Source of the DNA: a virus
Taxonomy: Duplodnaviria > Caudoviricetes
Direction: 5' to 3' (one strand)
Virus record (IMG/VR): IMGVR_UViG_3300014204_000011
Location: 1 to 64,000 of that record
DNA length: 64,000 bases
The first letter of the stretch is position 1, and every line of letters begins with the position of its first letter. The translations under genes were made by a program, and so were the position numbers. The notes beneath the pieces are model-generated. The model did no database searches and had not been told where the DNA came from. It saw only the letters and a program-made list of their open reading frames with translations. Positions 16,319-43,342 of the stretch are shown here, one piece after another.

Positions 16319-17598
16319 ACGCTATTCACAAATAGGTAAAAATATTATAGAATGGGATCAGACCTATTATATAACTTATGCTGGGGGTAAAAGAGAACTT
16401 CCGGCTAAAGATCAAAAAGAATATGATAAAACTCTTAACTTGCCTTTTGCATTGCAAAGACAGGAATTAAAAAAACTGGGATTTGAAAAGAATCCTAATG
16501 TCGTACCGATTAAAGGATTGTCTTTGATTGAATTATTTAAAGACAGATCTTTTATACCTTTTTTTGATGAGTATTTTAATCAATCACATTTAATTCAAAT
16601 TCATGATCAGATTGTTTATGAGTCTATAAAGCAAAAATCTTATGACTTGTTGTTGAACATTTAATGAAAATAAATATCTCTAAAATTATTCAGCAAATAT
16701 ATAAATCTGAAATACCGGTTCGTATTGAATTTATGTATGACATGGGTTTTTGTTGGAGCTTGATTGATGAGAAAATATTTCCTAGAATATTCTATGATTT
16801 TAAACTTGAAGGTGTTGCTATAGAAAATATATTGACAAAAGATAAAGTTCCTGTATTTGAAAAGGATTGGATTGCTAAAGGAGTTTCACAATCTTTTGAC
16901 GATGCTATAAAAAAACTATGTGAGGCTATTGTAGAACATTTACCTGAAAGTAGTTTTGCTGAATGGTGGAGAGGTATAAATTGAGGCATAAGCATGAAGA
17001 TTTTGAAGAAGATGAAGCTAGTGTTGATAGCCGTGAACGCAATAAACAGTTAAAACAGGATTTTGATGAGCTTTATATTCATAATTGTAAAAGATCTGGT
17101 AAAAAGTTTACATGTGTTCAAAATACTACAATCTTTGTTAGCGGAAATATAACAAGGTTATTGTTACCGCCTAAAACTCATTATGCTGATTGCCTTAAAA
17201 GAATTAGCGAAAATATGTATGTACAACTCAAAACAATAAAGGAGTAACAGAAAATGACATTTGAAAAAGCGATAGAAAAAGTCTTTGATCGGGACGAGAA
17301 AAAATTCGGGACTGTTTTTGCAGAAAGAAATACTCTTTCCGGACTTGATGAACTAAAAATTGCTGCGAAAGTATGGAATATTGTAGCTTTAGCACTGGAA
17401 GAAAAAGGGCTTGACGATTTTATTATTATCAATAATGTAGGTGGTATTGTATCTATTCCCCTGAAAGAGGAGAACATTAAAGATGATTCTAAAGGAAAAA
17501 GCAAAAGTCCGAAGACAGAGACAGCTTCAGATGATGCTGTAAATGGCAAAGAAGAAAAATCAAAAGAATCTCCAGCCACAACAAAGCCAGTTAAGTAA
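16311..17598 (+). CDS. four hypothetical ORFs (16311-16664, 16664-16984, 16963-17247, 17254-17598)
   Basis: ORF track; coupled stops and starts. Confidence 0.65.
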
Positions 17599-19201
17599 AG
17601 ATACATATCTTGATGCTTTTAACGCCGGTCGTGCAGCCGTTAAAGCTGCTGACCGAGCTTTATATAATTCAGTTCCTAAAGGAATACAATATAACTGGCT
17701 TCATAACGTAAACTACAATAATGTAGTTTATCCTATAGATAAAATCCCCGATAGATTATTAAGACTCATAGAAAGAAAAAATCCCGTAGTTGGTGCTATT
17801 ACTACTTTGCGTATTCAGCAGGGTATTGAATATGCACATATCAGCCATGATAAAGATGTGCCTGGTTGGGAAATATGTTTATCAGATGAAAAAGCCACAA
17901 TAAGCCCTGATCAGGAAAAGCAAAAGAAATTTCTTGAAAATATTCTCATGTATGGACATAGAGAAGATTATGCGCCTTATCAGGTTTCGGACATGCCTCC
18001 AACTTTCAGAGAACGTATGACTATGTATATGAGAGACAGACTTTTAATTGATAAAGTTTGTTGGGAAATAGAAAGAAACCGTAAAGGTGAAACTGTTGCG
18101 CTCTGGACTCTTGACGGTGCGACTATATATCCGGTTTTACCTGGTGGATTTTATGGCAGTGTATCTCAAATTAGCACGGGTATGATAGGTGGATTTAATA
18201 AACTTACCGATGAAATAAGAAAAGCAAAGATTGAAAATATACCTCCGGTTGAAGAAATTGCTTTTGTACAGGAGCTTTTATATGGTATGTCTGGTGGAGG
18301 AATTGCTGCTGCTTTTAGGAATACTGATCTTATTTATGATATAAGCTCAGATCTTAATGATATTAGATATTATAAACAAGGTTATTCTGTAGTTGAAAAA
18401 GCTAATATGGCAGTTACGGCTTTTATAAATTCGTTGTCTTATAATAGCAACGGACTTTCAAGAGGTGCAATCCCGAAAGTTGCTATAGCTATGGGAAAAG
18501 AAAGCGGATATACACAACCACAGCTTGAAGACATGCAAGATGAGTGGATGGCTAATTTTGAAGGTGTAGACGGTCAATGGAATATCCCTCTTCTTAATGG
18601 TGATGCTAAAATATTAAATCTCATGCCTAATAATAGAGATATGGAATATCAGAAATATATGGAATTTTGCGGTGCATTGATTTGTTCAATCATGGGTGCA
18701 GATCCGGCAGAAGCTGGGCTTAGATTTAACCAGGCTCAAAATGTATTATCAGAAAACCAAGATGCAAAACAAGTATTTTCTAAGAACAGAGGACTTAATC
18801 AGCTCTTAGGAGATTTTGCATATATTGTTAATCGTTGGCTAAGAGAAAGCGGATATAAGTTTGGAAGAGAATTTGTATTTAAGTTTAATGGACTTGTTAA
18901 TTCTGATAAAGGATTTGAAGCAGATCTGTTAAAGAAAAAAGCTGAAACTTATATGGAAGTTAACGAAATAAGAAAAGAACTTGGTTTAAAACCTCTTAAA
19001 GACGGAGATATAATTCTTAATAGTATATATTTACAGGCTAAACAGGCTAATGCAATGTCAGAGCAAGGTGGGGGAGAAGATGGAGCTGAAGGTGAAAGTG
19101 ACGAAACAGGTTTTGGTGGATTTAGCGAAGATGATATTGACGGAGCTGTTGACGAAGCCGTATCAGGTATGGAAAAAGCAAAAAGCATAAGATTAATATA
19201 A
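17543..19201 (+). CDS. portal protein
   Basis: 552 aa after terL; RDRLLIDKVCWEIERNRKG, SRGAIPK, WNIPLL, RDMEY and EIRKELGLKPL motifs; acidic tail ending in MEKA. Confidence 0.88.
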   Translation: MAKKKNQKNLQPQQSQLSKDTYLDAFNAGRAAVKAADRALYNSVPKGIQYNWLHNVNYNNVVYPIDKIPDRLLRLIERKNPVVGAITTLRIQQGIEYAHISHDKDVPGWEICLSDEKATISPDQEKQKKFLENILMYGHREDYAPYQVSDMPPTFRERMTMYMRDRLLIDKVCWEIERNRKGETVALWTLDGATIYPVLPGGFYGSVSQISTGMIGGFNKLTDEIRKAKIENIPPVEEIAFVQELLYGMSGGGIAAAFRNTDLIYDISSDLNDIRYYKQGYSVVEKANMAVTAFINSLSYNSNGLSRGAIPKVAIAMGKESGYTQPQLEDMQDEWMANFEGVDGQWNIPLLNGDAKILNLMPNNRDMEYQKYMEFCGALICSIMGADPAEAGLRFNQAQNVLSENQDAKQVFSKNRGLNQLLGDFAYIVNRWLRESGYKFGREFVFKFNGLVNSDKGFEADLLKKKAETYMEVNEIRKELGLKPLKDGDIILNSIYLQAKQANAMSEQGGGEDGAEGESDETGFGGFSEDDIDGAVDEAVSGMEKAKSIRLI

Positions 19202-19216
19202 CGAGGTATAATAATT

Positions 19217-20311
19217 ATGACGGTTAATAGATTAAATATAAGAGCTTGCCAAGTTCTTTATCTTGCAAAAACATATGATGTGCTGATTGGTATTTATCAT
19301 GATGATGAACTTGATAATGCTCTTCAGGAATGGGCCTTGAATAAATGGGGTGTAGCTCTTTCTTTACCGGCTGCGCTTGTATATAATAAAGATGTTACGG
19401 AAGTCCTGACTTCAATGGCTATTGACAGTTATGCGTATTTGCAAAGCCCTGTAAGCGCATATATGGATATGCCTAGATATGCAGGTATAAAAGGAACTTT
19501 TCCCACTCTTCCCGTTGTTCTTGATACTAACAGTAAATATGTATGTCCGGAAACAGATATTTATATTTATTCTCTAGCTGGACAGGATGGGGTTTTCGGA
19601 GAATATAGTGTAGCCGAACTTGCTCTTACGCCGAATGTAGGAATAAACTTTTTAGGCATATCTTATGCTAGTGCCGTTCCTGTATGGGTGTTTTATACTG
19701 CTGAAACATCTTATAATTATTCTTCTATAATTCCAGTTGCTACAGTTCTCTATTTTCAAAGCACAATATTTAATATTCCATTTGGTCAAACCGGTTATGG
19801 ACTTGCTGAAAAAAGTCTTAAAGTAGGACATAGACGTAAAAAATTTGAAATACTTGATACTTATACTTTCGTTAATTCAGGTCTTTATGTTGAATTGAGT
19901 GCATTAAAAGTCAGTAACGGAGTAGAAGAAATAGATTGCCTGGCAATGGACACACAGACATTGCTAAATGATATGTATTTATATTATAAAGACAGTTCTC
20001 AGGTATGGCAGACTTCAAAAGTGACAACGATTGATAATCTTCAATATCAGAGTGCTTCCGGTCTTGCTAATCTAAGTGCTGGAGAATTTGTTATAAATAA
20101 CATCTTTAGAGTTGTTACAGAAGATGGATTATTATTATTTAATGTACTTTCTAATAAATTTGCAACTGCTCAATTAGCAATGAATTCCGGAGAAGTTGAA
20201 ATACCTGCGATTATAAGAGATAGTGCCGTTTGTGTAGGCCGGTTTATAATTGAACAGGCTTCCAGTTCTCCAGTTGTACAAAAAGTTCAAAAAGTAATAT
20301 TTGGTAATTAA
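19217..20311 (+). CDS. putative virion structural protein
   Basis: 364-aa beta-rich ORF directly after portal. Confidence 0.5.
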   Translation: MTVNRLNIRACQVLYLAKTYDVLIGIYHDDELDNALQEWALNKWGVALSLPAALVYNKDVTEVLTSMAIDSYAYLQSPVSAYMDMPRYAGIKGTFPTLPVVLDTNSKYVCPETDIYIYSLAGQDGVFGEYSVAELALTPNVGINFLGISYASAVPVWVFYTAETSYNYSSIIPVATVLYFQSTIFNIPFGQTGYGLAEKSLKVGHRRKKFEILDTYTFVNSGLYVELSALKVSNGVEEIDCLAMDTQTLLNDMYLYYKDSSQVWQTSKVTTIDNLQYQSASGLANLSAGEFVINNIFRVVTEDGLLLFNVLSNKFATAQLAMNSGEVEIPAIIRDSAVCVGRFIIEQASSSPVVQKVQKVIFGN

Positions 20312-24654: not shown

Positions 24655-26043
24655 ATGCCTGATGATAAAGACCAACAACATGAAGTCAAAGAAGAAAGAT
24701 ATGTTGAAGATTTAATTCTTTATTATCAGACTTATGTAAATGCGGTTATAAATGAAATATTTGTAGGTATAGGCATAAGTCTTGGTCAGACAGAAAAACA
24801 AGCTTATGCAATGGCTAAGACAGATCCTAAAAAACTTGAAAAAGCATTTTTTAAAGATGTATTTGAAAAGTTTAAAAATGTATTCAAACATAAAATTCCT
24901 AAATTCAGATTAAAACAAAATATATTTAACAAAGGCAAGCCATTAACCGAAAAGCAATGGGATGTTATAAGTAAAGCAATAGCTGAATACTGGAAACAAA
25001 ATACTTCCAAAGTCACTGAAGATGTAACTGTAAAAGGTTATGTGCTAGGCATAAAATCCTCTAAATATCGTAAAACTAAAATTGATAACACTAAGAAAAC
25101 CTTACCTGAAATAATCAAACATGAAGAAAAGGAAAGCGGAAAAAAATTTGCAGATAAGTTTGAAGAAGCTTATAAACGCTATGATTTTAAAAATAGTGAA
25201 AAAAATGCTATGAACAGGGCTTTTTCAAATATAGCTATGCACGTTTCTGATACTGGTGATGGAGTTAAGCAAGCCATAAGAAAAGTTGTTACTGAAGGTA
25301 TAAATGAAGGTAAAAGTCCGGTTGAAACTGCTTCAGATCTATATTGGAATATTCAGAAAGAAACCGGTAATGAAACTGCTGAAAGTGTAAGAAAAAATTG
25401 GAATAGGATTGCTGCAACAGAAATGAATTCAATATTTGAAGCCGGTATTTTAGCTCCTTATGAAGCACAGGCTATGGAAAGCTTGAAGACCGGTAAGGGT
25501 GTTTATTTTGTCAGAGTAAACGGAACGTGCGATTGGTGTAAACCAAGACAGGGTACTATAGTTAGATTAGTTCCTACAAGCATAGTAGGTGATGTAAATG
25601 ATGACAGTTTAAAATCTATGGGTATTGATGATCCCTATACCGATATAGCTATATGGGTAGGTAAAAACAATGTAGGTAGGAAAAAACAGGACTGGCTTAT
25701 ATGCTGTCCTGCTCACCCATTTAACAGAGCAAGCTTTTCACTTATTGATTTAGATACACAAGAATATGAACCTAAATTTGGAAGAGTAGTTAATAAAGTT
25801 CCTGAAAGTTTAAAACAATATGGAATTAAAAGAGATACATCTTTTGCAACTCCGGAATATAAAGAAAGTAAAAAACCGGTTAAAATAGGTGATAATCTTG
25901 TAAGATTTTATGATAGTGTTTATGAAGCTGTAGACAAAGAAAATTATAATAAGAAATTAGAATTATGGAAAAAAGATCCATCTCAACCTATACCTGTTAG
26001 TCGTAGCAGTACAGATTATAAACATATTTTTGGTGATTTATAA
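24655..26043 (+). CDS. MuF/SPP1 gp7-like head morphogenesis protein
   Basis: NWNRIAATEMN, CDWC and CPAHPFNR motifs; LEKA site near the N-terminus. Confidence 0.8.
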   Translation: MPDDKDQQHEVKEERYVEDLILYYQTYVNAVINEIFVGIGISLGQTEKQAYAMAKTDPKKLEKAFFKDVFEKFKNVFKHKIPKFRLKQNIFNKGKPLTEKQWDVISKAIAEYWKQNTSKVTEDVTVKGYVLGIKSSKYRKTKIDNTKKTLPEIIKHEEKESGKKFADKFEEAYKRYDFKNSEKNAMNRAFSNIAMHVSDTGDGVKQAIRKVVTEGINEGKSPVETASDLYWNIQKETGNETAESVRKNWNRIAATEMNSIFEAGILAPYEAQAMESLKTGKGVYFVRVNGTCDWCKPRQGTIVRLVPTSIVGDVNDDSLKSMGIDDPYTDIAIWVGKNNVGRKKQDWLICCPAHPFNRASFSLIDLDTQEYEPKFGRVVNKVPESLKQYGIKRDTSFATPEYKESKKPVKIGDNLVRFYDSVYEAVDKENYNKKLELWKKDPSQPIPVSRSSTDYKHIFGDL

Positions 26044-30686: not shown

Positions 30687-31456
30687 TGCTTTATTTAAAG
30701 GTTGGTGAGAACAAATATATAAAGCTTGAAAGTCTTGAAAAGGCTAGAAGTCATAAATATGTAAGTAGAAAGCCTGATGGAAAGGGTGGGTGGAAATATT
30801 TTTATGCGGATAAAGATAATAAACCTTCGGTAAGAATGGCTAATTACAATGACAAATCTTTAAGAATTTATAACAATTTTGAAGGTAATATTTTTAGTGA
30901 AAGGCATGGAATAATACAATCAACAAGTAAACAGTCTATCATTAAAAGTATTGAAGTTGAAAAAGAAATTGTTAAGAATACAGATTTTGAAACCGGCGCA
31001 GCTTTTGACAAAAATGGGAAACTTCTAATAAAGAAAAAAGGTGTTTATGATAAAGTTAATTTTGTAGATCCTGAATACAGAATAATAAATGGTTCGGAAA
31101 TTTTTACACATAATCATCCAGAAGACAAATCTTTTAGTGATGACGATCTTATTTTCGCTCTTGTTTTAGGCATTAAAGAAATGCGAATTATATCTCCCTT
31201 AAAAACATATTCTTTTAAAATTAGCCATAAAAATAAATCTAAAGATTTACAAGAACTTTCTGATAATATAAAATATTATCAGAAAAAAATAATTCAACAT
31301 CAAAAAATTATTCAATCTGAGAATAGTGATTTAATGAATCAAAATCCTGATGAATATTTTTTAAAAAAAGATCATAAAGTGATAGAATCACTAAAGAATG
31401 ATTCTAATTTTTTAAAACATTTTAACATAAATTACGAGGTAAAAAATAATGAATGA
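30686..31456 (+). CDS. leader + KY..R.P.G.GG motif + JAB/JAMM-like toxin domain
   Basis: LEKA-RSHKYVSRKPDGKGGWKYFY; E...THNHPEDKSFSDDD. Confidence 0.7.
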   Translation: MLYLKVGENKYIKLESLEKARSHKYVSRKPDGKGGWKYFYADKDNKPSVRMANYNDKSLRIYNNFEGNIFSERHGIIQSTSKQSIIKSIEVEKEIVKNTDFETGAAFDKNGKLLIKKKGVYDKVNFVDPEYRIINGSEIFTHNHPEDKSFSDDDLIFALVLGIKEMRIISPLKTYSFKISHKNKSKDLQELSDNIKYYQKKIIQHQKIIQSENSDLMNQNPDEYFLKKDHKVIESLKNDSNFLKHFNINYEVKNNE

Positions 31457-31800
31457 TAATTTTTTTAATCCCATAAGTAAGGAAACGAAAGAAAAAGGTT
31501 TTTTTTCTTTAGGAGGTATGGAAAAAGATATAAAGAGGCAAGAAGAATTAAAGAATATAAACCTTAAAGATTTGGAAAAAGAAATAGAAGAACTGGAGAA
31601 GAGATTGGATCATGAATAATATTGAAATAAAAAATCCTGAAGTCCATATTGACGGATCTTCTAATAAATTATTTTATATTTTTGCAGATAAAGTCTTTAA
31701 AACAGGTAATAATCAAACCGAAAAAGAACAGCTAAAAGTTAAAATCAATAAATCAATACTTAATATCGAAGAAAAAAATATGCTATTAGGTTTTTTATGA
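31449..31800 (+). CDS. two small ORFs (31449-31619, 31612-31800)
   Basis: manual translation and ORF track; coupled overlaps. Confidence 0.5.
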
Positions 31801-32075
31801 CAGATTTAGAGAGTAGAAATTATCGTAAAGTTTTTCATCCAAATGGAATGAGTATAGATACTATAGATATGAATGAATCTTTTAAATGGGAGAAATCTTG
31901 TGAATATAGTTTTTCTGAAAAATCAAAACTTATAACTAAGATATTAACAAAATATGGTATTGAGGATGAAATAATAGTTCAAAGATTAAAGAAATGTTTA
32001 CCAAAAGGTAAAAATGAATTTTTATCTTATACAGATAATGAATACGAATCATTAATAAAGGAGTTTAACTTATGA
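31797..32075 (+). CDS. putative immunity protein, paralogue A
   Basis: shares SEKSK.I.KIL...Y...R.KKCLP.G.N...DNEY..L.KEFNL with 36056-36361. Confidence 0.6.
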   Translation: MTDLESRNYRKVFHPNGMSIDTIDMNESFKWEKSCEYSFSEKSKLITKILTKYGIEDEIIVQRLKKCLPKGKNEFLSYTDNEYESLIKEFNL

Positions 32076-35000
32076 AAACAAAAATAGACTTCTCGCTCTA
32101 TACTCCTCAGATGTTGCGTGATCAGATTCAAGAAGAGCTTTTAAAAGTCGATGATGCAAAGCAAGCGTCATACAATGCAATTGTTTTTCTCAATAATTTA
32201 TATGGAGCAAAGAACATGCAGAAGGCAAAAGAACTTTCCAAACTTATAAAAAAACAAATTATTGATAAAACTGGTAAATCAACTACAGTTTATGTCAAAC
32301 CCGAAGGATCTAAAACTGAATGGCTAAATAAATTCATTAGTTTCTTTGGATTTAGTAATGCAGGTCAAGCTAATCAGCGTATTGAACAGGATTATAAAAA
32401 GCTTGAACTTGATAAAAAAGGCGTGACCTGGTCAGATTGGAAAAGTCATGTAAGTGAATATTTCAGCAATAAAGATAAATGGGACAGATTTTTTTCAGGT
32501 AAATCTTCAGAGAAAAAAGCTACAGAAAAAAAAGAAGATGCAAAAGCAAAGAAAGCTGAAAAGAAACCGGTTAAGCAGACTTTTAAATTATCTCTCATGA
32601 AAGTAGTTGCAGGATTGTACGGTAAAGCTCCGGAGAAGAAGAAAGAAGAACCGGTAAAGGCGGTTGAAAAACCCATTGAAAAACCTATCGAAAAGCCAGT
32701 CGAAAACAATTTTGATACTATGCCAGAAACCGTTGCAGAACCTGAACCAGAACCAGTTAAAGAAGAGCCTGTTAAATCAGGTGAAGAAACTCTTCAGGGT
32801 AAATTCGATAGATGGAAAACAGGAGATTTAACAGGTGTTGAAGGTCATAAATTTAATATGACTAAAACTATGATGGGTAAAGGTGGTCCTAAAACATTTT
32901 TTAATGAAATTATTATAGAGAAAATATCAAATGGATTTATGAGTTATGTTGATGCTGTAGGTGGTAGGGAAAGTTTTTCAGGTGGCATTTCTGAAAAAGG
33001 GTTTATTAATGATTTAAAAAATGGTTCGATGATTCCCGTAGGTCTGGAAAAAACCATTGATACCGGTAACGGATCTAAGATTGAAGCTGTTAAAGCCTAC
33101 ACTCCTGAACAGAGAAAAGAGGTTAATGCCGATGCTAAAGAAGCGGCGAGAGAGGGTTATTTTAACGAACGACCGGCTGAGATATTAAATGTCGGTAAAG
33201 ATGTATGGGGTGCAGCTAGACATAATTATGATACTTATCAGCAAATGAACGCTGATGTAAATCAAATGGAAAAAGAAGGAACTGCACAAGCATATGTAAC
33301 AAAGAAGAACCTTTTCGGAGATTATGGACTTGCCAATAAAGATGAAAGAGTTGGCAAAGGTGAAACCGAATATAAGGTATTAGCAAGTTTTGTAATGAGA
33401 GAATATCTTTCTAAAATGCCTCCGAATAATCCTACAGATAGAGCAATGTATATGGATTTTTGTCGTGCCATTTCAAGACTTGATCAAAATACAACTGATG
33501 CTAAAACATTTTATTTTGGTATGGCTGAGACTTTTGCTCAGATGTTTCCGATAGAAGCACAAAAACCAGCCACTCCTGGACAGGGTATAAGCGTACTTGA
33601 TATGATACCACAGAATAGAAAAGGTAAAAAACCTGAAGACATTATAGGCCCTGTTCTTACGGCTTTATTCTATTCACTGAATCAGCAGGCTAATCAGAGC
33701 CGGAACATATATTACGGTATGGATAAGAAAGAACGTAAGCAGATGGATGTAATGAGTGCAGCACTTCTAGCTGAAATCGGTAAGACTAATAAGACTTATA
33801 ATGAACTTGAAGTTATGATTTTTGGAGAAACAAAACTATCCGGCATTAAAATGAAAAAAGGTGATGCGGTTGTGTTTGCTGAAAATCTTGCTGATCATGT
33901 TTATGCTATAAGAATAGATTATGCTAGTGATGAAGATAAATTAAAGCATGATGCTTTAATAAAAGAAATTAATAATATTGGAGCAGATGGTCATTTTCTA
34001 TATCTTTCAAATAAAGAAAAAGAAAAGAAATTACCTGAACTCAATAAGAAATATGGAACTAATTTTACTATGGATAAATCGTGGGAAGTTACGAAATATA
34101 TAGATGAATTAGTAAGAGAAAAATCAGTTGAAGCTGCTAAATATAGAATAAGAACTAAAATTTTCCCAGAAGAAAAAGGACAGATTATAAAAGTTGGTAA
34201 AAGTGATATAGAGGTTGCATTCAAATTTCCTAATGGAACAATTAAAGGTTTTAGAATGAAACCAAGTGAATTAAAACCTGAGAATGTAGAATCTATTTCA
34301 AAAGACATAAAAAGGAAAGAGACACTAATATTGAATCTTGCCGTTGAAAAAAAAGTAATTCGTAAAGGTGGTAAAGATTTCTCAGGTCTTTCAATTACTG
34401 AACTTCAAAATAAACTTACCGAAGATTTTAAATTCAAAGCTATTCAGTACGGAAACAGTGTACCAGATGACGAAAGACAGTATCATACACAATGGACTCT
34501 TGAATCAATGTCTGATCTTGAAGATATTACAGGCATACCATTAGAGCAACTTACAGCACGGGGTAAACTTGGTATAGCTTTTGGAGCAAGAGGTAAGCCT
34601 ATCCCTGGAATTGGAGCAGGTGCTTTAGCTCATTATGAACCTACAACTAAAATGATAAATATTACCCGTGCCAATGGTTACGGCAGTCTTGCTCATGAGT
34701 GGGCGCATTTCGCCGATAATATTTTATCACCAGATATGAATGATTATATTACTATTCAGCCCAAAGCTATTGTAAAAGAAGTAAACTCTTCTAATATTAA
34801 AATAGGTTCGATTTATGAACACGAAACAAGGAAAGGTAAAAAGACAATTACAGAAAGATACTATTATGATGGTAAAGATCCAGAATGGCCTTTTGCTAAA
34901 TTAAATAATGGTCAGAGTGAACCCGATAGTAAATCAATGCACTCTAACTTTTATAAATTTAAAAACGGGCAATCTCTAAAAGTTTTAGAACCTGATAATT

Positions 35001-35428
35001 TACCTTTTATGGAGATAGCTTCTAAAATTGCAAGATTATCACAACAGTCTTTGCACGATCAAGCCAATAAGATCGATGATGGAATAAACAAAAAGCATAT
35101 ATTAGAAGATCCATATTTAAATGACAGAAAAGAATGTTTCGCCAGAGCTTTTGAAATATATATTGCAGATAAACTCAAAGAAAAGGGAAGAGTGAATACA
35201 TATCTTGTAAGTCATAGAAAAACATTTGAACAGGATGGAGCTTCAATTTATCCGCAGGGAACATTTAGAACCGAAATAAACAAAATGTTTGATGAGTTTT
35301 TTATAGAAATAAACAAAAATCAGGAGATGAAAAAAGCAATAGACAAATTATTAAAACAGAATAAAAATGTTTATATAAAGAAACTCAATCCCATAACTCA
35401 AAAGCCCGAATACAGGAAGGTAAAGTGA
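32072..35428 (+). CDS. large polyvalent protein with LPD1-like C-terminal domain
   Basis: 1118 aa; LGIAFGARG, AHYEP, GSLAHEWAHFADN and ECFARAFEIYIADKL...NTYL. Confidence 0.8.
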   Translation: MKTKIDFSLYTPQMLRDQIQEELLKVDDAKQASYNAIVFLNNLYGAKNMQKAKELSKLIKKQIIDKTGKSTTVYVKPEGSKTEWLNKFISFFGFSNAGQANQRIEQDYKKLELDKKGVTWSDWKSHVSEYFSNKDKWDRFFSGKSSEKKATEKKEDAKAKKAEKKPVKQTFKLSLMKVVAGLYGKAPEKKKEEPVKAVEKPIEKPIEKPVENNFDTMPETVAEPEPEPVKEEPVKSGEETLQGKFDRWKTGDLTGVEGHKFNMTKTMMGKGGPKTFFNEIIIEKISNGFMSYVDAVGGRESFSGGISEKGFINDLKNGSMIPVGLEKTIDTGNGSKIEAVKAYTPEQRKEVNADAKEAAREGYFNERPAEILNVGKDVWGAARHNYDTYQQMNADVNQMEKEGTAQAYVTKKNLFGDYGLANKDERVGKGETEYKVLASFVMREYLSKMPPNNPTDRAMYMDFCRAISRLDQNTTDAKTFYFGMAETFAQMFPIEAQKPATPGQGISVLDMIPQNRKGKKPEDIIGPVLTALFYSLNQQANQSRNIYYGMDKKERKQMDVMSAALLAEIGKTNKTYNELEVMIFGETKLSGIKMKKGDAVVFAENLADHVYAIRIDYASDEDKLKHDALIKEINNIGADGHFLYLSNKEKEKKLPELNKKYGTNFTMDKSWEVTKYIDELVREKSVEAAKYRIRTKIFPEEKGQIIKVGKSDIEVAFKFPNGTIKGFRMKPSELKPENVESISKDIKRKETLILNLAVEKKVIRKGGKDFSGLSITELQNKLTEDFKFKAIQYGNSVPDDERQYHTQWTLESMSDLEDITGIPLEQLTARGKLGIAFGARGKPIPGIGAGALAHYEPTTKMINITRANGYGSLAHEWAHFADNILSPDMNDYITIQPKAIVKEVNSSNIKIGSIYEHETRKGKKTITERYYYDGKDPEWPFAKLNNGQSEPDSKSMHSNFYKFKNGQSLKVLEPDNLPFMEIASKIARLSQQSLHDQANKIDDGINKKHILEDPYLNDRKECFARAFEIYIADKLKEKGRVNTYLVSHRKTFEQDGASIYPQGTFRTEINKMFDEFFIEINKNQEMKKAIDKLLKQNKNVYIKKLNPITQKPEYRKVK

Positions 35429-36072
35429 CTAACAGACTTATAATTAAACTGGCTGATGGTCTTTATATAGATTTAAGTAAAGCCCGAAGTCATAAATATA
35501 TCAGTCGCAAACCTGATGGTAAAGGAGGTTGGATTTATACTTATTATAAAAAACCTGTTGGAAATAGTTATGCTGTAAATTATAATGATATGAGAGATTT
35601 TGATTATGAAAAAGCAGTTCAAATATATAAAGATACAGAATCTATAAGAAATATTAAAAATTATGAACATTCAAAAATATATGATAATAAAGGGATAGTG
35701 TTACTTTATAAAATATTTCCTAAAACTGGAGGGAGTTTTACTAATGAAGAATTAAATAAAATTGAAAATTCAAAATTATTAATACATAATCATCCTTCAG
35801 GAGATTCTTTTTCCACAAAAGATATTCAGTTAATTATCGAAAAAAATATAAATGAAATTAGAGCCATAGGTCAAAAAGAAAAAACAAAAACTATTTTTTC
35901 TTTAAAATTGGAAAAACAAATTCCAATTGAATTAAAAAGAGATTTATTGAATTACCATTTTAGCTTATGGAATATAAATAAAACAACTGGAGATAAATTT
36001 TTTGCTCATAAAACAATGCAAGATTTTATAAAAGTTTATGGAGAATATTTTAAATATGAAAGAATTAAATAA
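35425..36072 (+). CDS. leader + KY..R.P.G.GG motif + JAB/JAMM-like toxin domain (paralogue)
   Basis: LSKA-RSHKYISRKPDGKGGWIYTY; E...IHNHPSGDSFSTKD. Confidence 0.7.
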   Translation: MTNRLIIKLADGLYIDLSKARSHKYISRKPDGKGGWIYTYYKKPVGNSYAVNYNDMRDFDYEKAVQIYKDTESIRNIKNYEHSKIYDNKGIVLLYKIFPKTGGSFTNEELNKIENSKLLIHNHPSGDSFSTKDIQLIIEKNINEIRAIGQKEKTKTIFSLKLEKQIPIELKRDLLNYHFSLWNINKTTGDKFFAHKTMQDFIKVYGEYFKYERIK

Positions 36073-36361
36073 AAAAGATTTTAAAAGAAATAAAATTTAT
36101 CATGAATTGTTTTATCCAAATTCGCCTTTAGGTTTAGATGGAGAAGAAATGTCTTCTGAAAAATTTGCGGAAAAAATAAAATCTTCTAAAATATCTGAAT
36201 CAGAAAAAAGTAAAATAATTAAAATATTGATACAAAATTATGATTTTATAGATAAAAATATATACAACAGAATAAAAAAATGTCTACCAAATGGATTTAA
36301 TTCAATGTATTCAATAGAGGATAACGAATATTTTGAATTAAAAAAAGAGTTTAATTTATAA
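36056..36361 (+). CDS. putative immunity protein, paralogue B
   Basis: overlaps the stop of the JAB gene; paralogous to 31797-32075. Confidence 0.6.
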   Translation: MKELNKKDFKRNKIYHELFYPNSPLGLDGEEMSSEKFAEKIKSSKISESEKSKIIKILIQNYDFIDKNIYNRIKKCLPNGFNSMYSIEDNEYFELKKEFNL

Positions 36362-36402
36362 AAAAACATGAATATTATTAATAAAATGGAAGGTTAAATA
36401 AC

Positions 36403-39400
36403 ATGGCAAATAAAATATTTTTTAAAACAGTTGAAGGTAAATATGTATCACTTGATAAAGCTTCAAATCCCGAAGATAAAGTTCGTAAGGTTATGGGTGA
36501 GTTTAAAAGAGGTACTTTACATTCCAGTTCCGGTCAAAAGGTAACTTCAAAAGACCAGGCTTTGGCAATCGCAATGTCGGAGAGTGGATTATCTAAACAA
36601 ATGGTTGCTGATATTCTTATTGATTATGATGATATGGAAAAAGCAAGTCAGATAAAAGAAGGGATTAAAGTAGAAAAAGAACATATTCCTACTATGAAAT
36701 ATATTAAAGATAAGTTTGGAAAATATCATAAAATGGCTAATACTGAAGATATTGCCGAGCACATCGCCGGAGACCATCTTGAAGAGATAAAAGATTATTA
36801 TACAAGATTACTTGAAATGGAAAAACAGGCTAAAGGCGATAAAAAAAGACCTCAAATCGAAATTGATGTAATTAAATTTTTAATTGATAATCCGAATCCT
36901 GCGGATAGTAAAGTTCATACTTTTAGTGATAAAATAGGCATAGACACACATAAACTTGAAGCGATATTCTATAAACTTGCTACTGAAAGAGCTGAAATGA
37001 GTAAAGACATGCAGAAAGCTAAGTCTGCAATAGGTACTACTGCAACTTGGGCTGACGGTAAACAATATCGTAAAGTAGCTGAAGGTCAATGGGAACAGGT
37101 TAAGGGTGACGGTAAAAGCCATAATGCTAAATTAGGTGGCGGAGCACATGGTTATGGCAAACACGATGTAAGTACAGCACCGAAGCTTCATAAGAGATTT
37201 ATGGATTATCTACAGAACATGAGCCAGGAACATCGGGACATATTCAGAGGCGGTAAGTTTGATTTTGAAAAGAAAACATTTACAGCTATAGGCGGTAAAG
37301 TAGCTTTGCTTTGGAAAGATGATAAAGTTAATATTGTTAAGACTGATAAAATGGATAAAGCCCGTGTGACCAAATATATAAAAAGAGTGCCGAAGCCGTC
37401 AGGTAAGGGTTATTATTATTTCTATACAAAGCAGCAGTTTAACCAGTATAAAGAGACTGGAAAAGTTCCTGAACAAGAAAAAGGCGATTCAGCTTTACAA
37501 AAGATATTCAAATTTTTAGGTGTTGATAATTGGATGGACGGTAGTAAAAAAATAGGTTCAATATACGAATCTAATAAAAGCTCTCTTCTTGAAAATAATG
37601 TCGATAAAAAGACTTTTGCTGAATACAGTGTAGAATACTTATCTAATAAGGAAAAATGGGATTCTCGTTTAAGTGGTGAGAAAAAAGAAAAGTCAGAGTC
37701 AAAGCCTAAGTCTGAACAGCCTAAATCTGAGAAAAAAGAGAGTGGTGATAAAAAAGAAGGTAAATGGAACATGGGTGTAATGCGAGCTATTGCAGGGATT
37801 TATGGAAGCGGAGAAATAAAGAAAATTGATACAGAAATGCCTATGCCTACTACTCCCAACAAAAAAGATGATAAGAATAAAAAAGATAAGGAAGCCCCTA
37901 AAAAAGGTTTTGAAGATGAGCTAAATGAACGGGAAAAAGAAGGTAACAATAAAACTTATACTAATAAGATAAAGCAATTACAAAATGAAATAAATAGTTT
38001 TTCCAAAACAGCTTCCGGAGGAAGTAAATATTCTCTTGATTCTAAAGGAAATGAAGATTCTGGAGAAATGTCTATTCAATTAAAAGATAGTGTATCTGGT
38101 AAAATTATTCCTAATACACAAATAACTGGTAAAATTAAAGATTTTTTAAATATTAAAAATCAATTGATTGAAAAAATGAAAGAAATAGACAGTAATGACA
38201 AATCCCCTGACAACTTCGATACTATGCCGGAGGGGGACGATATAGAAAAAGGCATAGAGGATTATTATAAAAAAATTACAGAAGAATTTAGTAATGAAAA
38301 ACCTGATTTAAATAAAATCAAGAAAGTTGCTAAAGAAAAAGCTGATAAAATAAATTCAATTATGAATAAAGAAATTTCTTTAGATACAGGCGGAATAGTT
38401 AAGTCAAATAAGAAGTTTATACTTGAAAAATATGATCCAAAAGAAGATAAAATGACTTTTAAAGATAATAACGGAAAAACTCAGGAAATAACTTTTTCTA
38501 AATTTGAAAAAGAAAATCCTAAATTTTTTAACAGTCAAAAACCCTCCGCAACCGAAGCACTGAAAACTTTTACGATAGTAGATAATAATAATCCTGAAAG
38601 AACCGTAAAAGTGCAAGCTAAAGATGAAAATGAAGCTAAAGATAAAGGTGCTTCAGAACTTAAAACTACAAACATAAGAACTTATGAGTCAAGTAATAAA
38701 GTAGAAGCACTGAAAGATGAGTTGGGGAAGAAAAAGAGCGAGAGTAGAGAAAGAGAAATAACTGTTTTTGGTAAACAGCAAAAAGTTAAAACTAAGCCGA
38801 TAGAATTAAACTTGGGATATGGTCATCCTTTTGAGATTGCTAAAAGAGAATTTGGAAGTGGTCGCTCAGATTGGATTATTCTTGAAAGTAGTACGGGTTT
38901 AAAGGTTGGAGATGGCAAAACTCAAAAAGAGGCTATTAGTAACGCTGAATCTATGATAAAAAATTATACTCCAACAGAGAATGAATTTAAAAAATTAATT
39001 GAAAAAAGTTTATCTTCCGAAAATGTTTTAAAACGTGAAAAAGAAATAGAAAAAAATAAAGAAATAGATAAAAAAGTTGAAAAAGATTTTGAAGATAAAT
39101 CTGAAAAAGGCCAGTCCCAAATAAAGAAAAACGAAGAAGATGATAAGCGAAAACAGGTTCAAAAAGATAAATTAAATTCTTCAGATCCACAGAAAAAATA
39201 TGATGCAATGAAGGAAGAAATTAGAGATTTTTCAGAAAGAAATAATATATCTGAAAAAGAAATAACAAAAGAATGGATAAATGAAGAAAGAAAACGTTTT
39301 CAACAGGATATAAAAGATGCTTATAAGTATAAAAAACCGAAAGAAGCTGGAGTTTATAAAGTTGGATTAAAAGAACTTGATAATATTGAAAAATATCAAA

Positions 39401-39861
39401 AAGAAATGATTTCTTTAAAAGAAGAACTACTCGGCCCGAAAATGTTCAAAGCCCTGTCAAATCTAAGAGAAGAGTTAATGTTTAAAGCCCAAACTACAAA
39501 ATATATTAAAAGAATACCCGATCCAAAAGGCAAGGGATATATTTACTTTTACACACAAGATCAGGTTAAAGCATATCAGAAAGATGGAACTATACCAAAT
39601 CAGCAGAAAAAGCCTAAGACTAAACCAGAACAAGGTGGTAAAACTAACATAGAAAAGCTTAAAGAAACTACAAAAAAAATAGCCACTATTGTTGCTGATG
39701 CTTTAAGTGCTAAAGATGCGGTAAATCCTGCTGGACAGGCAGTAGAACAAGCCGGAGAAGATATAAACGAAAAGAACAAAATGAAAAAAAGACTTGAAGA
39801 AAAGCAAGTACCTGATAAAAAGAAACAAGTTAATAAACCGGAGGAAAAACCGAAAAAGTGA
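36403..39861 (+). CDS. 1152-aa multi-module head cargo protein (DUF6496-like, DUF5661-like, two KY..R.P.P.GKG repeats)
   Basis: KVRKVMGEFKRGTLHSSSGQKVTSKDQALAIAMSE; GIKVEKEH...DHLEEIKDYYTRL; modules preceded by LDKA, MEKA, MQKA, MDKA and MFKA. Confidence 0.75.
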   Translation: MANKIFFKTVEGKYVSLDKASNPEDKVRKVMGEFKRGTLHSSSGQKVTSKDQALAIAMSESGLSKQMVADILIDYDDMEKASQIKEGIKVEKEHIPTMKYIKDKFGKYHKMANTEDIAEHIAGDHLEEIKDYYTRLLEMEKQAKGDKKRPQIEIDVIKFLIDNPNPADSKVHTFSDKIGIDTHKLEAIFYKLATERAEMSKDMQKAKSAIGTTATWADGKQYRKVAEGQWEQVKGDGKSHNAKLGGGAHGYGKHDVSTAPKLHKRFMDYLQNMSQEHRDIFRGGKFDFEKKTFTAIGGKVALLWKDDKVNIVKTDKMDKARVTKYIKRVPKPSGKGYYYFYTKQQFNQYKETGKVPEQEKGDSALQKIFKFLGVDNWMDGSKKIGSIYESNKSSLLENNVDKKTFAEYSVEYLSNKEKWDSRLSGEKKEKSESKPKSEQPKSEKKESGDKKEGKWNMGVMRAIAGIYGSGEIKKIDTEMPMPTTPNKKDDKNKKDKEAPKKGFEDELNEREKEGNNKTYTNKIKQLQNEINSFSKTASGGSKYSLDSKGNEDSGEMSIQLKDSVSGKIIPNTQITGKIKDFLNIKNQLIEKMKEIDSNDKSPDNFDTMPEGDDIEKGIEDYYKKITEEFSNEKPDLNKIKKVAKEKADKINSIMNKEISLDTGGIVKSNKKFILEKYDPKEDKMTFKDNNGKTQEITFSKFEKENPKFFNSQKPSATEALKTFTIVDNNNPERTVKVQAKDENEAKDKGASELKTTNIRTYESSNKVEALKDELGKKKSESREREITVFGKQQKVKTKPIELNLGYGHPFEIAKREFGSGRSDWIILESSTGLKVGDGKTQKEAISNAESMIKNYTPTENEFKKLIEKSLSSENVLKREKEIEKNKEIDKKVEKDFEDKSEKGQSQIKKNEEDDKRKQVQKDKLNSSDPQKKYDAMKEEIRDFSERNNISEKEITKEWINEERKRFQQDIKDAYKYKKPKEAGVYKVGLKELDNIEKYQKEMISLKEELLGPKMFKALSNLREELMFKAQTTKYIKRIPDPKGKGYIYFYTQDQVKAYQKDGTIPNQQKKPKTKPEQGGKTNIEKLKETTKKIATIVADALSAKDAVNPAGQAVEQAGEDINEKNKMKKRLEEKQVPDKKKQVNKPEEKPKK

Positions 39862-40052
39862 AAGAAAAGATAATTATAAAAGATGCGGTTAAAAGAAACT
39901 GCCCGTTTTGTGGTACTATGTATGCTTACGAAAATAAAGAATTAGGGCAGGTTGTATATAGAAATGTAGCTTTTATATTTATAGATAAAGCAAAAAGCAT
40001 TGAAACTATAAAATGTAAACAGTGCGGAAATGTAGTAGCAATCAATACTTAA
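39858..40052 (+). CDS. Zn-ribbon (Com-like) protein
   Basis: CPFCG...CKQCG upstream of the prohead protease. Confidence 0.6.
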   Translation: MKEKIIIKDAVKRNCPFCGTMYAYENKELGQVVYRNVAFIFIDKAKSIETIKCKQCGNVVAINT

Positions 40053-40061: not shown

Positions 40062-40091
40062 TTGACAGATTTTATATTTTTGTTTTAGAAT
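40062..40091 (+). promoter_or_regulatory. sigma70-type promoter of the capsid operon
   Basis: TTGACA-N18-TAGAAT. Confidence 0.6.
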
Positions 40092-40160
40092 GTACTCTAA
40101 ATAATAAACAAATAATCCAGCCGTTACAAGGAAATGTTTATTTCTCTAAAGAGAGGTAAA

Positions 40161-41045
40161 ATGTTTTTTCAGATTAACGGCTTAACCATCCAAAACCTAC
40201 AAAAAGCTTCAGACGACAAGCTTGTTAAAGTTGATATTATAGCCAATCATCTTACCGAAGATAGTGACGGAGAAGTAATACTCAAAGAAGCATTTTCTCC
40301 CGAAGTTATCAATGATTTTCTTTCGACCGGCGTAATTAATTTCTGGCATGATAATAAAAATCCTCTCTTATCAAAAGAAGAGCAAATGAACGCTTTACTT
40401 GGTAAACCCATAGCTTTTAGATGGGAGAATGGAAAGCCTGTAGTTACTGCACAACTTACTAAATCACATCCTATCGTACAAACAATGATGCCTCATCTTG
40501 AAGCAGGTAATCCTGTGTATAGCGCAAGCGTAGATGGATCTAAAATGGTTATGCTTGTAGAAAATAGTGAAGGTGAGAAAAAGAAAGTCATACCTAAAAT
40601 CAAATGGAACGGACTTGCCATAGCCCCCTGTAATTCAGTAATCAATCGAGAACCAGGTGTTAATGTTAAATTGTTAAGTAAGGCAAATGATATAATTGCT
40701 GAATTTAACGATATGGATAGCTTTAAAATGATGTCTGGACAGATCTTCTCCCAAGAAACCGAACTCCGTAAAGCTTTATCTGCCCCTGAAAGTGTAGGTG
40801 ATATGCAAAACACTTCAGGAGGAGTTATAACAAAACAAGATTTAGAAAAAAGCGTTACATCTTTAACCTTTTCCGAGGATGAAGCATGTAATCTTATAGA
40901 TACAATATTAGGTATTAAAAATGGTTCGATACCAATAACAATAAATGAATATAAGAACCATTTTAAAAATAATGAAGAATTTGCTGATAAGTCTTATCGG
41001 CTGTTCGATAAATATTTCAAAAAAAACAACAAGGAGCAATCGTAA
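40161..41045 (+). CDS. prohead (maturation) protease
   Basis: DSDGEVI, FWHD, SASVDG and LAIAP...N motifs of HK97-like proteases; GAGG RBS; upstream of scaffold and MCP. Confidence 0.85.
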   Translation: MFFQINGLTIQNLQKASDDKLVKVDIIANHLTEDSDGEVILKEAFSPEVINDFLSTGVINFWHDNKNPLLSKEEQMNALLGKPIAFRWENGKPVVTAQLTKSHPIVQTMMPHLEAGNPVYSASVDGSKMVMLVENSEGEKKKVIPKIKWNGLAIAPCNSVINREPGVNVKLLSKANDIIAEFNDMDSFKMMSGQIFSQETELRKALSAPESVGDMQNTSGGVITKQDLEKSVTSLTFSEDEACNLIDTILGIKNGSIPITINEYKNHFKNNEEFADKSYRLFDKYFKKNNKEQS

Positions 41046-41046
41046 C

Positions 41047-41826
41047 ATGATAACAAAAGAAGAATTGTTACAGAAAGGAATTGATCCTGCCGAAGCTGAT
41101 AAGATAATTTCGGCTCTCGAAGGACAAGCTGAAAATTCCTCTCCCCTTGAAGCTCTAAATAAGGCTCTAAAAGATGATTCAGAAATGGATTCTCTTTTTA
41201 AAGCAGCCAAAAAGGGAGAGGGTGATGAGGATGACGAAGAGGATGAAGAGGAATATGACGAAAAGTTCATGAAAAAGATGAAAAAGTACATGAAGTCAAA
41301 AGGCAAAGAAGACAGTGGTGATGACGATGACGACAAAGGCTTTTTCGGAAAAGAAATGAAAAAAGCTGTTGATGACATTAATCCTGATTCAGATGGACTT
41401 GTTATTGAAATGGCTGATTTTAAACCGGTTTTTGAGTCTATGGTATCGACAATACAAAAGATGTCAAAAGCTATATCCGGACTTGAAAGAAAGGTTGAAG
41501 TTCTTTCAGAGCAAAACTCTGATTCTTACAGTCTTTTGGCTAAAGCTGCTGCTGTTACTGCCGAAACTGCGGAGATTGTAACTGGAATGGGTAATATTCC
41601 GGCTGGAAGAAAAGGTGCTTTAATAGCAGACATGAAAAAAGCTAAACAAGTCGAAAATGTAGATCCTCAAAAAGTTTGGACAGCTCTCGCTAAGGCTGTA
41701 AATGCCGGTGATTTGAAAGCTGGAGAAATTGGATCTAAATTTGAAAGTGCTGGAAAAAGATTCGGTTTTCTATCTGATCCAGAACAGGCTTATGTTATGG
41801 AACTTATGAAAAAGGAGGCTAACTAA
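41047..41826 (+). CDS. capsid scaffold protein
   Basis: AAGGAG RBS; acidic and helical; seven [L/M]xKA sites. Confidence 0.8.
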   Translation: MITKEELLQKGIDPAEADKIISALEGQAENSSPLEALNKALKDDSEMDSLFKAAKKGEGDEDDEEDEEEYDEKFMKKMKKYMKSKGKEDSGDDDDDKGFFGKEMKKAVDDINPDSDGLVIEMADFKPVFESMVSTIQKMSKAISGLERKVEVLSEQNSDSYSLLAKAAAVTAETAEIVTGMGNIPAGRKGALIADMKKAKQVENVDPQKVWTALAKAVNAGDLKAGEIGSKFESAGKRFGFLSDPEQAYVMELMKKEAN

Positions 41827-41827
41827 G

Positions 41828-43342
41828 ATGGATGAACTATATATGTTAGCAGAAAACGGGATGGGGGACATGGGGCTTGGCTCTCTATCGCAACTTGAAG
41901 CATTAAGTAAAGCTCTTTCTGCCCCTGCGAGTTATACAGATCTTTATACAACTCCAGGTGGCTCACTTACAATGCAATCATTGGAAATGATGCTTGCAAC
42001 TCTTACTCTTAAAGCTACTGATTTTACTCTATGGCAGGATATGAACAAGATGAAAGCATATTCTACTGTTGAAGAATATGATCAGCAGACTGGTCTTGGT
42101 ATCTCTGATGGTGGATTTGTTGACCAATTCAGCAATCCTACATTTCAAGACGCTGATTTTATCAAACAAATCTCAATTGTTAAGTTCATGAGAGAAGGTT
42201 GGAAGGTTGGTGATGTACAGGAAGCAACCAGAACAACTATAGACATAAGAACAAAACAACAGCAAGCTGCTATGGCAAGGATGTTGAGAAACCTTGACCG
42301 TGCGCTTTATAACGGTAACTCTGCATGGATTCCTGAAAGTATTGATGGTCTTGCTAAAACCATTGCTGCTTCTTCTTCAGAACAGATTTATGATATGAGA
42401 GGCGGTAATGTAACTATGGGTACATTTAACCTTATCGGTCAGCTTATCACTGAAGGAAATGGTCAGGTAGAAAATGCGAAAATATATGTTTCTCCGGCTG
42501 GAGTTCAAAATCTAAGCACTATTACTGAAGACGGTACTACTGCTGCTAATAACAGAAAGATAATGAAATCTGGTGATGCTAATATTACTATCGGTGGTAA
42601 AATATCAGGTATTATGACAAATTTCGGTGAGATGAAACCGAGAATGGATAAAATACTTGGTCTTGAATTTGAAGCACAAGGCGTTCCTAAATACAGGAAT
42701 AATACTACCGGTCTTTGGGTAGAAGGTGCTACTGCTGATAATGCTCCTTCAGCTCCGGCGGTTGCTCTTACTGTTAATGCTGTTGGTACAGGCTCTAAGT
42801 TTAGCGCAGGTACAACCAGACCTTCAGGCGTTGCATATTCTTATAGAGTAAGTGCAAGGAATAAATATGGAAGATCAATAGCTTGCGCTGCTGTAACGGC
42901 TGGTTCAACTGTAGCTGCCGGTGGATCTATTTCAATTGCTATTACTCCCGCTGCTGGAGATAGCGGTGCGAAAGTTCCTTCTTGTTTCGTAATTTATGCT
43001 AAAAAAACAGAAGATGCGAATAATGATTATAGATACATGGACACAATCGCTGCGGATGCAACTAATCCTCTTGCTGCCGTAACATATGAAGATAAAAATC
43101 TTTATATACCAGGTACAGCGAGAATGTATGTTATAGACCAAACTACACAGGGAGAAAGCAGAGTTCTTTCTTATGCTCAGTTACTTCCTATTCACAACAC
43201 AGATCTTGCTAAAGTCGGGCCTTATAGCCAGGGACTTATCAATCTGTATGGTACTATGAAATATTACAAGCCGAATGTTCTTGTTGAAATCAGAAATATC
43301 GGTGTATCTCAGACAAATGCAAATCTTTACAATGTAGTTTAA
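41828..43342 (+). CDS. major capsid protein
   Basis: 504 aa; LEALSKA propeptide junction, QSLE, STVEEY; Fn3-like insert YSYRVSARNKYGRS. Confidence 0.9.
   Translation: MDELYMLAENGMGDMGLGSLSQLEALSKALSAPASYTDLYTTPGGSLTMQSLEMMLATLTLKATDFTLWQDMNKMKAYSTVEEYDQQTGLGISDGGFVDQFSNPTFQDADFIKQISIVKFMREGWKVGDVQEATRTTIDIRTKQQQAAMARMLRNLDRALYNGNSAWIPESIDGLAKTIAASSSEQIYDMRGGNVTMGTFNLIGQLITEGNGQVENAKIYVSPAGVQNLSTITEDGTTAANNRKIMKSGDANITIGGKISGIMTNFGEMKPRMDKILGLEFEAQGVPKYRNNTTGLWVEGATADNAPSAPAVALTVNAVGTGSKFSAGTTRPSGVAYSYRVSARNKYGRSIACAAVTAGSTVAAGGSISIAITPAAGDSGAKVPSCFVIYAKKTEDANNDYRYMDTIAADATNPLAAVTYEDKNLYIPGTARMYVIDQTTQGESRVLSYAQLLPIHNTDLAKVGPYSQGLINLYGTMKYYKPNVLVEIRNIGVSQTNANLYNVV

Follow-up and report, generated by a model that had tools for sequence, protein, structure and literature searches.

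A lysine-type motif, [LM]-x-K-A, is shared by the capsid proteins, a putative prohead protease and candidate polyvalent cargo proteins of an uncultured phage

Introduction

In T4 and in SPN3US the prohead protease (gp21 and gp245, respectively) cuts ejection proteins at a single short motif, which the capsid proteins of the same phage also carry (PMC10052503). Polyvalent proteins, as described by Iyer et al. 2017, were predicted to be packaged in the head, injected and processed into units by a metallopeptidase (MPTase) domain (PMC5512222); a text search of that paper (linker, hairpin, short motif) gave no inter-domain cut motif and no hairpin tag. The present work deals with a head and cargo locus in the first 64 kb (IMG/VR record IMGVR_UViG_3300014204_000011, hereafter the window) of one 85,750-bp contig of an uncultured phage with a G+C content of about 30%. 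In the span 17543–43342 the genes for the portal, a MuF-like protein, five cargo proteins, a putative prohead protease, the scaffold and the major capsid protein (MCP) follow one another in this order, all on the + strand, and their products share the tetrapeptide [LM]-x-K-A, a candidate cut motif (written [LM]-x-K/A where the predicted cut is meant). Proteins without a name of their own are designated by the first nucleotide (nt) of their gene.

Results

Enrichment of the motif in head and cargo proteins

The head and cargo set was defined as ten proteins, namely the portal, the MuF-like protein, the five cargo proteins, the protease, the scaffold and the MCP. Together they contain 27 [LM]xKA tetrapeptides versus 3.55 expected, a number reached in none of 3000 within-protein shuffles, while the other 98 open reading frames (ORFs) of the 85.75-kb genome contain 12 versus 8.5 expected (not significant). 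Since the motif had been picked post hoc, all 8000 patterns of the form a-x-b-c were enumerated without prior choice. In the head set MxKA ranked first (13 versus 1.16, p 4e-10) and LxKA second (14 versus 2.35, p 2e-7), neither being enriched in the remainder of the genome, and IxKA, VxKA, LxKS, LxRA, LxEA, AxKA and LxKL were all at expectation. The third-ranked pattern, PxEA, is spread one per protein and was taken as chance. K-A dipeptides preceded at P3 by any residue but L or M are fewer than expected in this set of ten (22 observed, 35.6 expected), which would fit an avoidance of near-cognate sites.

The enrichment is thus real and far beyond chance. Taken protein by protein, it reaches significance only in 28674 (4 sites versus 0.24 expected, 1/3000 shuffles), 36403 (6 versus 0.74, 0/3000), the scaffold (7 versus 0.45, 0/3000) and the protease; the portal, the MuF-like protein, the MCP, 30686, 32072 and 35425, with one or two sites apiece, count only because these sites are conserved. 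Every tetrapeptide listed by the first-pass annotation of this DNA is present, and two further sites, in the leaders of 30686 and 35425, had been overlooked in it. The enrichment of [LM]xK[AS] over the rest of the proteome, which it had proposed to test, holds for Ala at P1'; LxKS is at expectation.

The capsid, scaffold and portal proteins

The MCP (41828–43342; phrog_752, 2e-69) belongs to the SPO1 / Bacteroides DAC16 type, with 28% identity to the DAC16 protein, and bears the motif at its propeptide junction, LSK/A, at amino acids (aa) 26–29 (nt 41903–41914). This junction, in the form h-x-K-[AS], aligns in all members of the clade as well as in SP-10, SPO1L5, DAC16, Thermus phage Lalka8 and Leptospira LE1, and the scaffold of SPO1L5 contains ten [LI]xKS tetrapeptides; the motif would therefore be a local variant of a lysine-type code that is old in this lineage of head modules. 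HK97 gp5 is likewise cut after a lysine. Usable data on measured N-termini in the SPO1 group of capsid proteins were not found in the literature searched. For Lalka8, a distant relative, the record places a CRISPR repeat region and a gene of the TnpB family immediately 3' of the MCP gene (L030:4610–6780).

The scaffold (41047–41826) has its seven sites at nt 41155–41166, 41194–41205, 41356–41367, 41461–41472, 41536–41547, 41632–41643 and 41686–41697, placed in mutually unrelated sequence contexts. All seven site columns are retained in five relatives, with L and M swapped and P2 free, and the scaffolds of seven further relatives have 6–8 sites each. In the portal (17543–19201; PF04860, 7e-19) a candidate site, MEKA (nt 19169–19180), lies seven residues from the C-terminus, and the sequence MEKA followed by x-RLI is conserved in both full-length relatives (G001 and G002). 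The gene 24655–26043, weakly assigned as a MuF-like head morphogenesis protein (phrog_2468, 3e-5), carries LEKA from aa 61 (nt 24835–24846), conserved at aa 61–63 in the same two relatives.

The putative prohead protease

The ORF at 40161–41045 encodes 294 aa, with a protease domain at about aa 16–174, and its family numbers at least 168 metagenomic proteins; the start of the gene and that of the scaffold gene were set by comparison with relatives, in all of which the order protease (40161), scaffold (41047), MCP (41828) is identical. Three sites are found in it, LQKA at aa 13–16 counted from the start at 40161 (nt 40197–40208) and two more at aa 172 and 202 (nt 40674–40685 and 40764–40775), two of the three bracketing the end of the protease domain. 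In an alignment of 50 homologs the three sites show K at P1 in 100%, L at P3 in 96–100% (the rest M), A at P1' in 80–100% (the rest S or T) and a free P2.

An AlphaFold2 (AF2) model was calculated from 50 sequences, with a predicted local distance difference test score (pLDDT) of 67.6 overall and 75–88 in the core; an earlier model from 5 sequences (pLDDT 47) was unusable. The best Foldseek match of the model is gp21 (probability 0.99). Superposition with VIA-align on T4 gp21 (5jbl_B) gave a Z score of 10.0 and a root-mean-square deviation of 3.9 over 132 aa, and on herpesvirus proteases Z scores of 5.5–7.3. The model thus supports the assignment of this ORF to the fold of T4 gp21, HK97 gp4 and herpesvirus assemblin. 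A profile search of PDB sequences with the protease returned nothing significant. At the sequence level, a 37-aa block around the invariant His is shared with the SP-10 procapsid protease (BLASTP 3e-5), a protein that matches PF04586 (6e-9).

Residues 196–237 of the protease (nt 40746–40871) are 48% identical to residues 20–61 of the MCP (nt 41885–42010; E 4e-11), so the MCP junction and N-arm recur, as a copy, at the head of the C-terminal part of the protease. The proteases of SP-10 and SPO1L5 show mimicry of this kind, which may anchor the protease to the inside of the capsid or make it a competitor for the site of the MCP N-arm.

The cargo proteins

Five genes (28674, 30686, 32072, 35425 and 36403), large or leader-bearing, lie on one strand between the portal and MuF-like genes and the protease–scaffold–MCP block, the head-gene context by which polyvalent proteins are recognized. 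Several of their motif sites are followed, 0–10 residues downstream, by a conserved basic, beta-hairpin-like element of the form K-Y-x-x-[KR] ... G ... Y-x-Y, here called the KY hairpin.

The first cargo polyprotein (28674–30686) consists of an N-terminal peptide, a small module, an HExxH segment (HEIGH, nt 29178–29192), an NT5C nucleotidase and an InPase domain (PF18823, 4e-44). Its sites are placed at aa 19, 64, 320 (LGKA) and 342 (nt 28728–28739, 28863–28874, 29631–29642 and 29697–29708), the last of them 1–4 residues ahead of the nucleotidase match and corresponding to MTKA in G002 and to LEKS in G001. An ORF of the relative L004 that starts with MTKA at this nucleotidase boundary was considered as a separate gene; this was rejected as an artefact of the truncated locus, since the full G002 record contains an 870-aa protein in which MTKA is internal.

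The second cargo polyprotein (32072–35428) shows an N-terminal domain of about 50 aa, a large body with HExxH (HEWAH, nt 34694–34708) and LPD1 (PF18796, 2e-16), and a hairpin-like C-terminal tail (nt 35369–35425). Its two sites, at aa 49 (nt 32216–32227) and aa 1086 (nt 35327–35338), are kept in 5/7 and 7/7 aligned homologs, respectively, with changes at P2 and between L and M. The tail comprises the last 19 residues, resembles the KY hairpin and begins 12 residues past the conserved C-terminal site; judging from its position, it would come off as a small C-terminal peptide and not head a module. For the HExxH region of this protein, matches were obtained to large proteins encoded by Stx-converting phages and by Acinetobacter phages.

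The third cargo polyprotein (36403–39861) is built from a leader, DUF6496 and DUF5661 (both identified by Pfam), an unknown module, a hairpin-headed body of 697 aa, a 12-aa spacer and a hairpin-headed tail of 124 aa. The six sites at aa 17, 78, 203, 317, 1014 and 1026 (nt 36451–36462, 36634–36645, 37009–37020, 37351–37362, 39442–39453 and 39478–39489) are accompanied by hairpins at nt 37372–37425 and 39499–39552.

The two small cargo proteins are paralogs with the same layout, in which a leader and a KY hairpin precede a single domain. In 30686 (30686–31456) the leader spans nt 30686–30745 and ends with LEKA from aa 17 (nt 30734–30745), and the hairpin is at nt 30755–30805; in 35425 (35425–36072) the site is LSKA, again from aa 17 (nt 35473–35484), and the hairpin is at nt 35494–35544. 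In Atlas models the domain of each is similar to ones that occur elsewhere as fusions with MuF, portal and minor-capsid proteins, with template modeling (TM) scores of 0.58–0.65 for 35425. Each of the two genes is followed by a small motif-free ORF (31612–32075 and 36038–36361, respectively).

Thus 28674, 32072 and 36403 combine several unrelated domains per chain, diagnostic families among them, InPase and LPD1 being families that were defined on polyvalent proteins. No MuF domain (PF04233) was found in any of the five cargo proteins, and the MuF-like gene 24655 stands separate from them. Judged from domain content and gene context, the cargo genes are phage-type polyvalent proteins. They are predicted to be packaged because InPase and LPD1 are diagnostic of polyvalent proteins for which packaging in the virion has been predicted, and the earlier description of these genes as non-structural is better replaced by candidate internal head or ejection proteins.

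Conservation in relatives

Relatives were collected via the MCP (63–90% identity) and via a protease profile, and seven loci with a protease identity of 56–62% served as the replication set. The motif recurs there in the proteases (26 sites versus 1.7 expected), the scaffolds (49 versus 3.1), the MCPs (7 versus 1.5) and, with cargo and unrelated genes pooled, the ORFs that precede the protease (60 versus 11.1). In contrast, 35 neck and tail ORFs contain 1 site versus 3.5 expected, and the unrelated sugar and radical-SAM genes upstream contain none. The cargo sites of the window are retained at 48 of 68 aligned homolog positions versus about 10% for random three-position patterns, with P2 and the choice between L and M varying; the alignments support purifying selection on the motif in the large upstream proteins. 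Within 36403, 6/6, 7/8, 8/8 and 8/8 homologs retain the sites at aa 17, 317, 1014 and 1026, respectively.

Gains and losses of modules can be followed at several sites. A block of 239 aa in the window copy of 36403 is missing from L004, with both ends of the block one residue from sites, and in the L001 homolog the leader runs almost straight into the site before the first hairpin. An ART-like cassette is located inside the G002 homolog of 28674 but C-terminally in the G001 homolog, the flanking sites being kept; its borders are a site plus hairpin at one end and MTK/A at the other. The L001 homolog of 32072 (L001:101–4045) has a long N-terminal extension with H-N-H-P-S-G at its start, as is typical of JAB/RadC-like domains, and also an ART-like segment, module content being strongly different among close relatives.

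The leader and the KY hairpin

The proteins 30686, 35425 and 36403 share an N-terminal leader of 20 aa that ends in [LM]xKA at aa 17–20. A leader hidden Markov model (HMM) built from the clade finds these three proteins only (E 8e-11 to 3e-8; 2.6e-8 for 30686 and 9.6e-11 for 35425), the next best in the genome having an E of 0.04. The hairpin is tightly linked to the motif, all 23 KY hairpins in the clade being preceded by [LM]xKA.

A profile of the site plus the hairpin was searched against a library of 1.8 billion protein representatives (E up to 1e-3) and matched at least 587 proteins or clusters, many of them 600–3100 residues long with 2–5 copies. In the top 150 representatives, which contain 267 hairpins, h-x-K-[AGS] is present no more than 14 residues upstream of 96% of the hairpins, versus 10% of control windows, and the sites show L (61%), M (23%), F (7%), I (6%) or V (3%) at P3 and A (80%), G (12%) or S (8%) at P1'; the profile itself contained the site, so that the 96% and the residue figures are biased upward. 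Within single proteins of these 150 representatives P3 is more homogeneous than in shuffles (0.69 versus 0.46, 0/2000), a weak effect confounded by module duplication, and P1' is not (0.64 versus 0.60, 224/2000). A domain census of 45 hairpin proteins gave ART-PolyVal, InPase, Zeta toxin, ddrB-ParB, RelA_SpoT, Kinase-PolyVal, LPD1, NUDIX, PBECR2 and MuF, and no conjugation domains. The distant hairpin proteins P0142 and P0144 were absent from the viral and metagenome contigs searched, as was P0139 from the phage collection searched, and a tblastn search with the hairpin region gave no match in a cultured phage.

A wider role of this arrangement can be put forward tentatively. The series h-x-Lys/small residue, short spacer and KY hairpin could be a general punctuation of polyvalent proteins in hundreds of uncultured phage lineages, in which the capsid protease cuts at the Lys and each module is left with a hairpin tag at its new N-terminus (for instance for binding to packaged DNA or to the capsid interior and for co-ejection), so that head cargo could be predicted from sequence. 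We regard this as a possibility worth stating, on which we would not yet rely.

Discussion

Proposed processing

The motif behaves as expected of a prohead-protease recognition site, in that it occupies positions of the kind known to be cut by such enzymes (the propeptide junction of the MCP, either side of the protease domain and many points along the scaffold) and is conserved in relatives. This much of the cut-site interpretation given in the first-pass annotation is supported, and cutting, the identity of the enzyme, packaging and injection are the steps that we infer. Probably, the prohead protease encoded at 40161–41045 cuts all these head and cargo proteins at [LM]-x-K/A inside the prohead, removing leaders and separating modules. 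In this scenario the protease would take the 28-residue propeptide off the MCP, free its own catalytic domain at three sites, cut the scaffold to short peptides at seven sites and trim the portal tail at MEKA, with the loss of the last 7 residues. The five cargo proteins (28674 to 39861) would be co-assembled into the prohead, three of them entering by the shared 20-aa leader and the other two by N-terminal segments of another kind, which likewise close with the motif. The cargo would then be split by this enzyme into modules, several of which would start with a KY hairpin a few residues after the new Ala N-terminus. Together with the DNA, the modules would pass out of the head and exert their effects early in the host.

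Several observations weigh against this proposal. The clade is uncultured, and the proposal is built on sequence and on models. The window protease has no Pfam match and none to PF04586 (Peptidase_S78) even at E 1, for which reason it is classed at the level of the fold only and not as an S78 member. Its catalytic residues are at the level of candidates, H63 and H103 being invariant and S123 present in 98% of the 50 homologs. The N-terminal peptide of the protease was tried as a further cargo leader and rejected, with a leader HMM score of -0.9 bits and a rank of about 50 among 108 N-termini. In the cargo, the sites at aa 64 of 28674 and at aa 78 and 203 of 36403 are poorly conserved in wider alignments. 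The first-pass annotation had placed the motif at module boundaries, which is borne out by the clear single cases described above and not by a general statistic: indel ends with reliable flanks lie near sites in 2 of 12 cases versus 5.7% expected, which is not significant, and over all homolog pairs 8% of the ends are within 5 residues of a site versus 5% at random. A promoter-like site at 40062–40091 (TTGACA, 18 nt, TAGAAT; 11/12), just 5' of the protease gene and after a small ORF at 39858–40052, may split the cargo genes from protease, scaffold and MCP as separate transcription units; it is the best match of the region, and promoter-like matches in total are no more numerous than expected from shuffles. 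Finally, the HExxH segments of two cargo proteins could be the processing enzymes instead.

This last point can be extended to an alternative in which packaged polyvalent cargo is cut by its own zincin-like HExxH domains, the resemblance of the motifs being convergent or due to a second enzyme of similar taste. It agrees with the published model of MPTase autoproteolysis (PMC5512222) and with the occurrence of HExxH in 28674 and 32072, conserved in the homologs of the latter. Nevertheless, the HExxH regions of both proteins have no Pfam match, and none to a Pfam MPTase family even at E 1; 30686, 35425 and the 36403 family have sites with no HExxH in cis; and the identical three-position code is found on canonical substrates of a prohead protease, which have no reason to be substrates of an MPTase. 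We therefore consider self-processing by HExxH distinctly improbable. The tight coupling of motif and hairpin could also be taken to mean that the cargo motif is conserved but uncut, acting as a loading or docking element (a hairpin cap, or bait for the protease or the scaffold) on cargo that stays full-length in the head, as does the packaged polyvalent N4 vRNAP, which remains unprocessed (PMC5512222); most head proteins of SPN3US are likewise uncut (PMC10052503). The spacer between K-A and hairpin, however, varies from 0 to about 10 residues, so that the motif is no fixed structural part of the hairpin, about 10 of the 15 cargo sites in the window are not beside a hairpin, and double sites 9–12 residues apart (such as aa 1014 and 1026 of 36403, kept in 8/8 homologs) look like the excision of a spacer. 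A purely docking role is in our opinion unlikely.

It could be argued, finally, that the enrichment is a functionless by-product of a helical composition rich in K, A and L or of one duplicated module, given that the scaffold and the cargo are K-rich (up to 18% K) and that the hairpin modules are paralogous repeats. The within-protein shuffles control for composition, chemically similar patterns are flat and K-A with another residue at P3 is depleted, which together argue that a helical or K-rich composition is no explanation; the scaffold sites, moreover, stand in unrelated contexts, and the pattern recurs in diverged genomes with turnover at P2. This explanation is effectively refuted and can hardly be upheld.

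If the capsid protease does process the cargo, a sequence rule would be at hand for head-loaded proteins and for the positions at which they are cut, in a large group of uncultured phages and in at least 587 related protein clusters, and capsid-protease processing would replace or supplement the published metallopeptidase self-processing of polyvalent proteins. The compact series of leader, cut site and tag would become a candidate route for loading foreign proteins into phage heads, and the delivery and separation of polyvalent proteins could be tested with one protease and few substrates. The semi-tryptic proteomics proposed earlier would be blind to a cut after Lys, since trypsin cuts at Lys too.

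Comparison with known systems

A close parallel is that of T4 gp21, to whose fold the protease is assigned, with its substrates IPI-III and Alt. In T4 one motif is found on the MCP, the scaffold core and packaged, injected proteins, and a short N-terminal leader, the capsid-targeting sequence, is removed at it; in the present phage the motif is distributed likewise, and packaging, injection and leader removal are predicted. The differences lie in the code, [LM]-x-K/A here instead of L/I-x-E with an acidic P1, in the leader, which is unrelated in sequence, and in the cargo, which in T4 consists of single small proteins but here of multi-module polyproteins with several internal sites, known from their sequences. 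In phiKZ (gp175) and SPN3US (gp245), where the motif is A-x-E, many head-internal proteins are extensively processed, with propeptides cleaved at several points each, and the protease also cleaves itself (PMC10052503, PMC7411985, PMC5694885). Both are giant phages, their genomes exceed 200 kb and the residue at P1 is another one; mostly N-terminal propeptides are removed in them, and not so much multi-enzyme chains split, whereas the phage described here has a genome of 86 kb and an SPO1-like MCP.

The head module itself resembles that of the Herelleviridae (SPO1, SP-10), with which it shares a homologous MCP with an L-x-K-A junction, a scaffold studded with lysine-type sites (h-x-K-S in those phages) and a protease C-terminus that copies the MCP N-arm after a K/small site; P1' is mostly Ser in the scaffolds of SPO1 and SP-10 but strictly Ala here. 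With the toxins fused to MuF (Jamet et al. 2017, PMC5576092), a text that does not mention cleavage or linkers, the cargo has in common the delivery of effectors via the head, predicted in our case, and domains in 30686 and 35425 that resemble those fused to MuF, portal and minor-capsid proteins; it differs in that it has no MuF domain, in the place of which leader and hairpin are found. The polyvalent proteins (PMC5512222) have the same domain families (InPase and LPD1 in the window, more in the hairpin set) and the same head-gene context. Their processing was assigned to the MPTase, whereas the punctuation seen here matches the own substrates of the capsid protease. The concept is thus known already, from the processed ejection proteins of T4, phiKZ and SPN3US and from the polyvalent proteins, for which packaging and processing had already been proposed; the novelty of this locus lies in its code, its leader and its hairpin tag.

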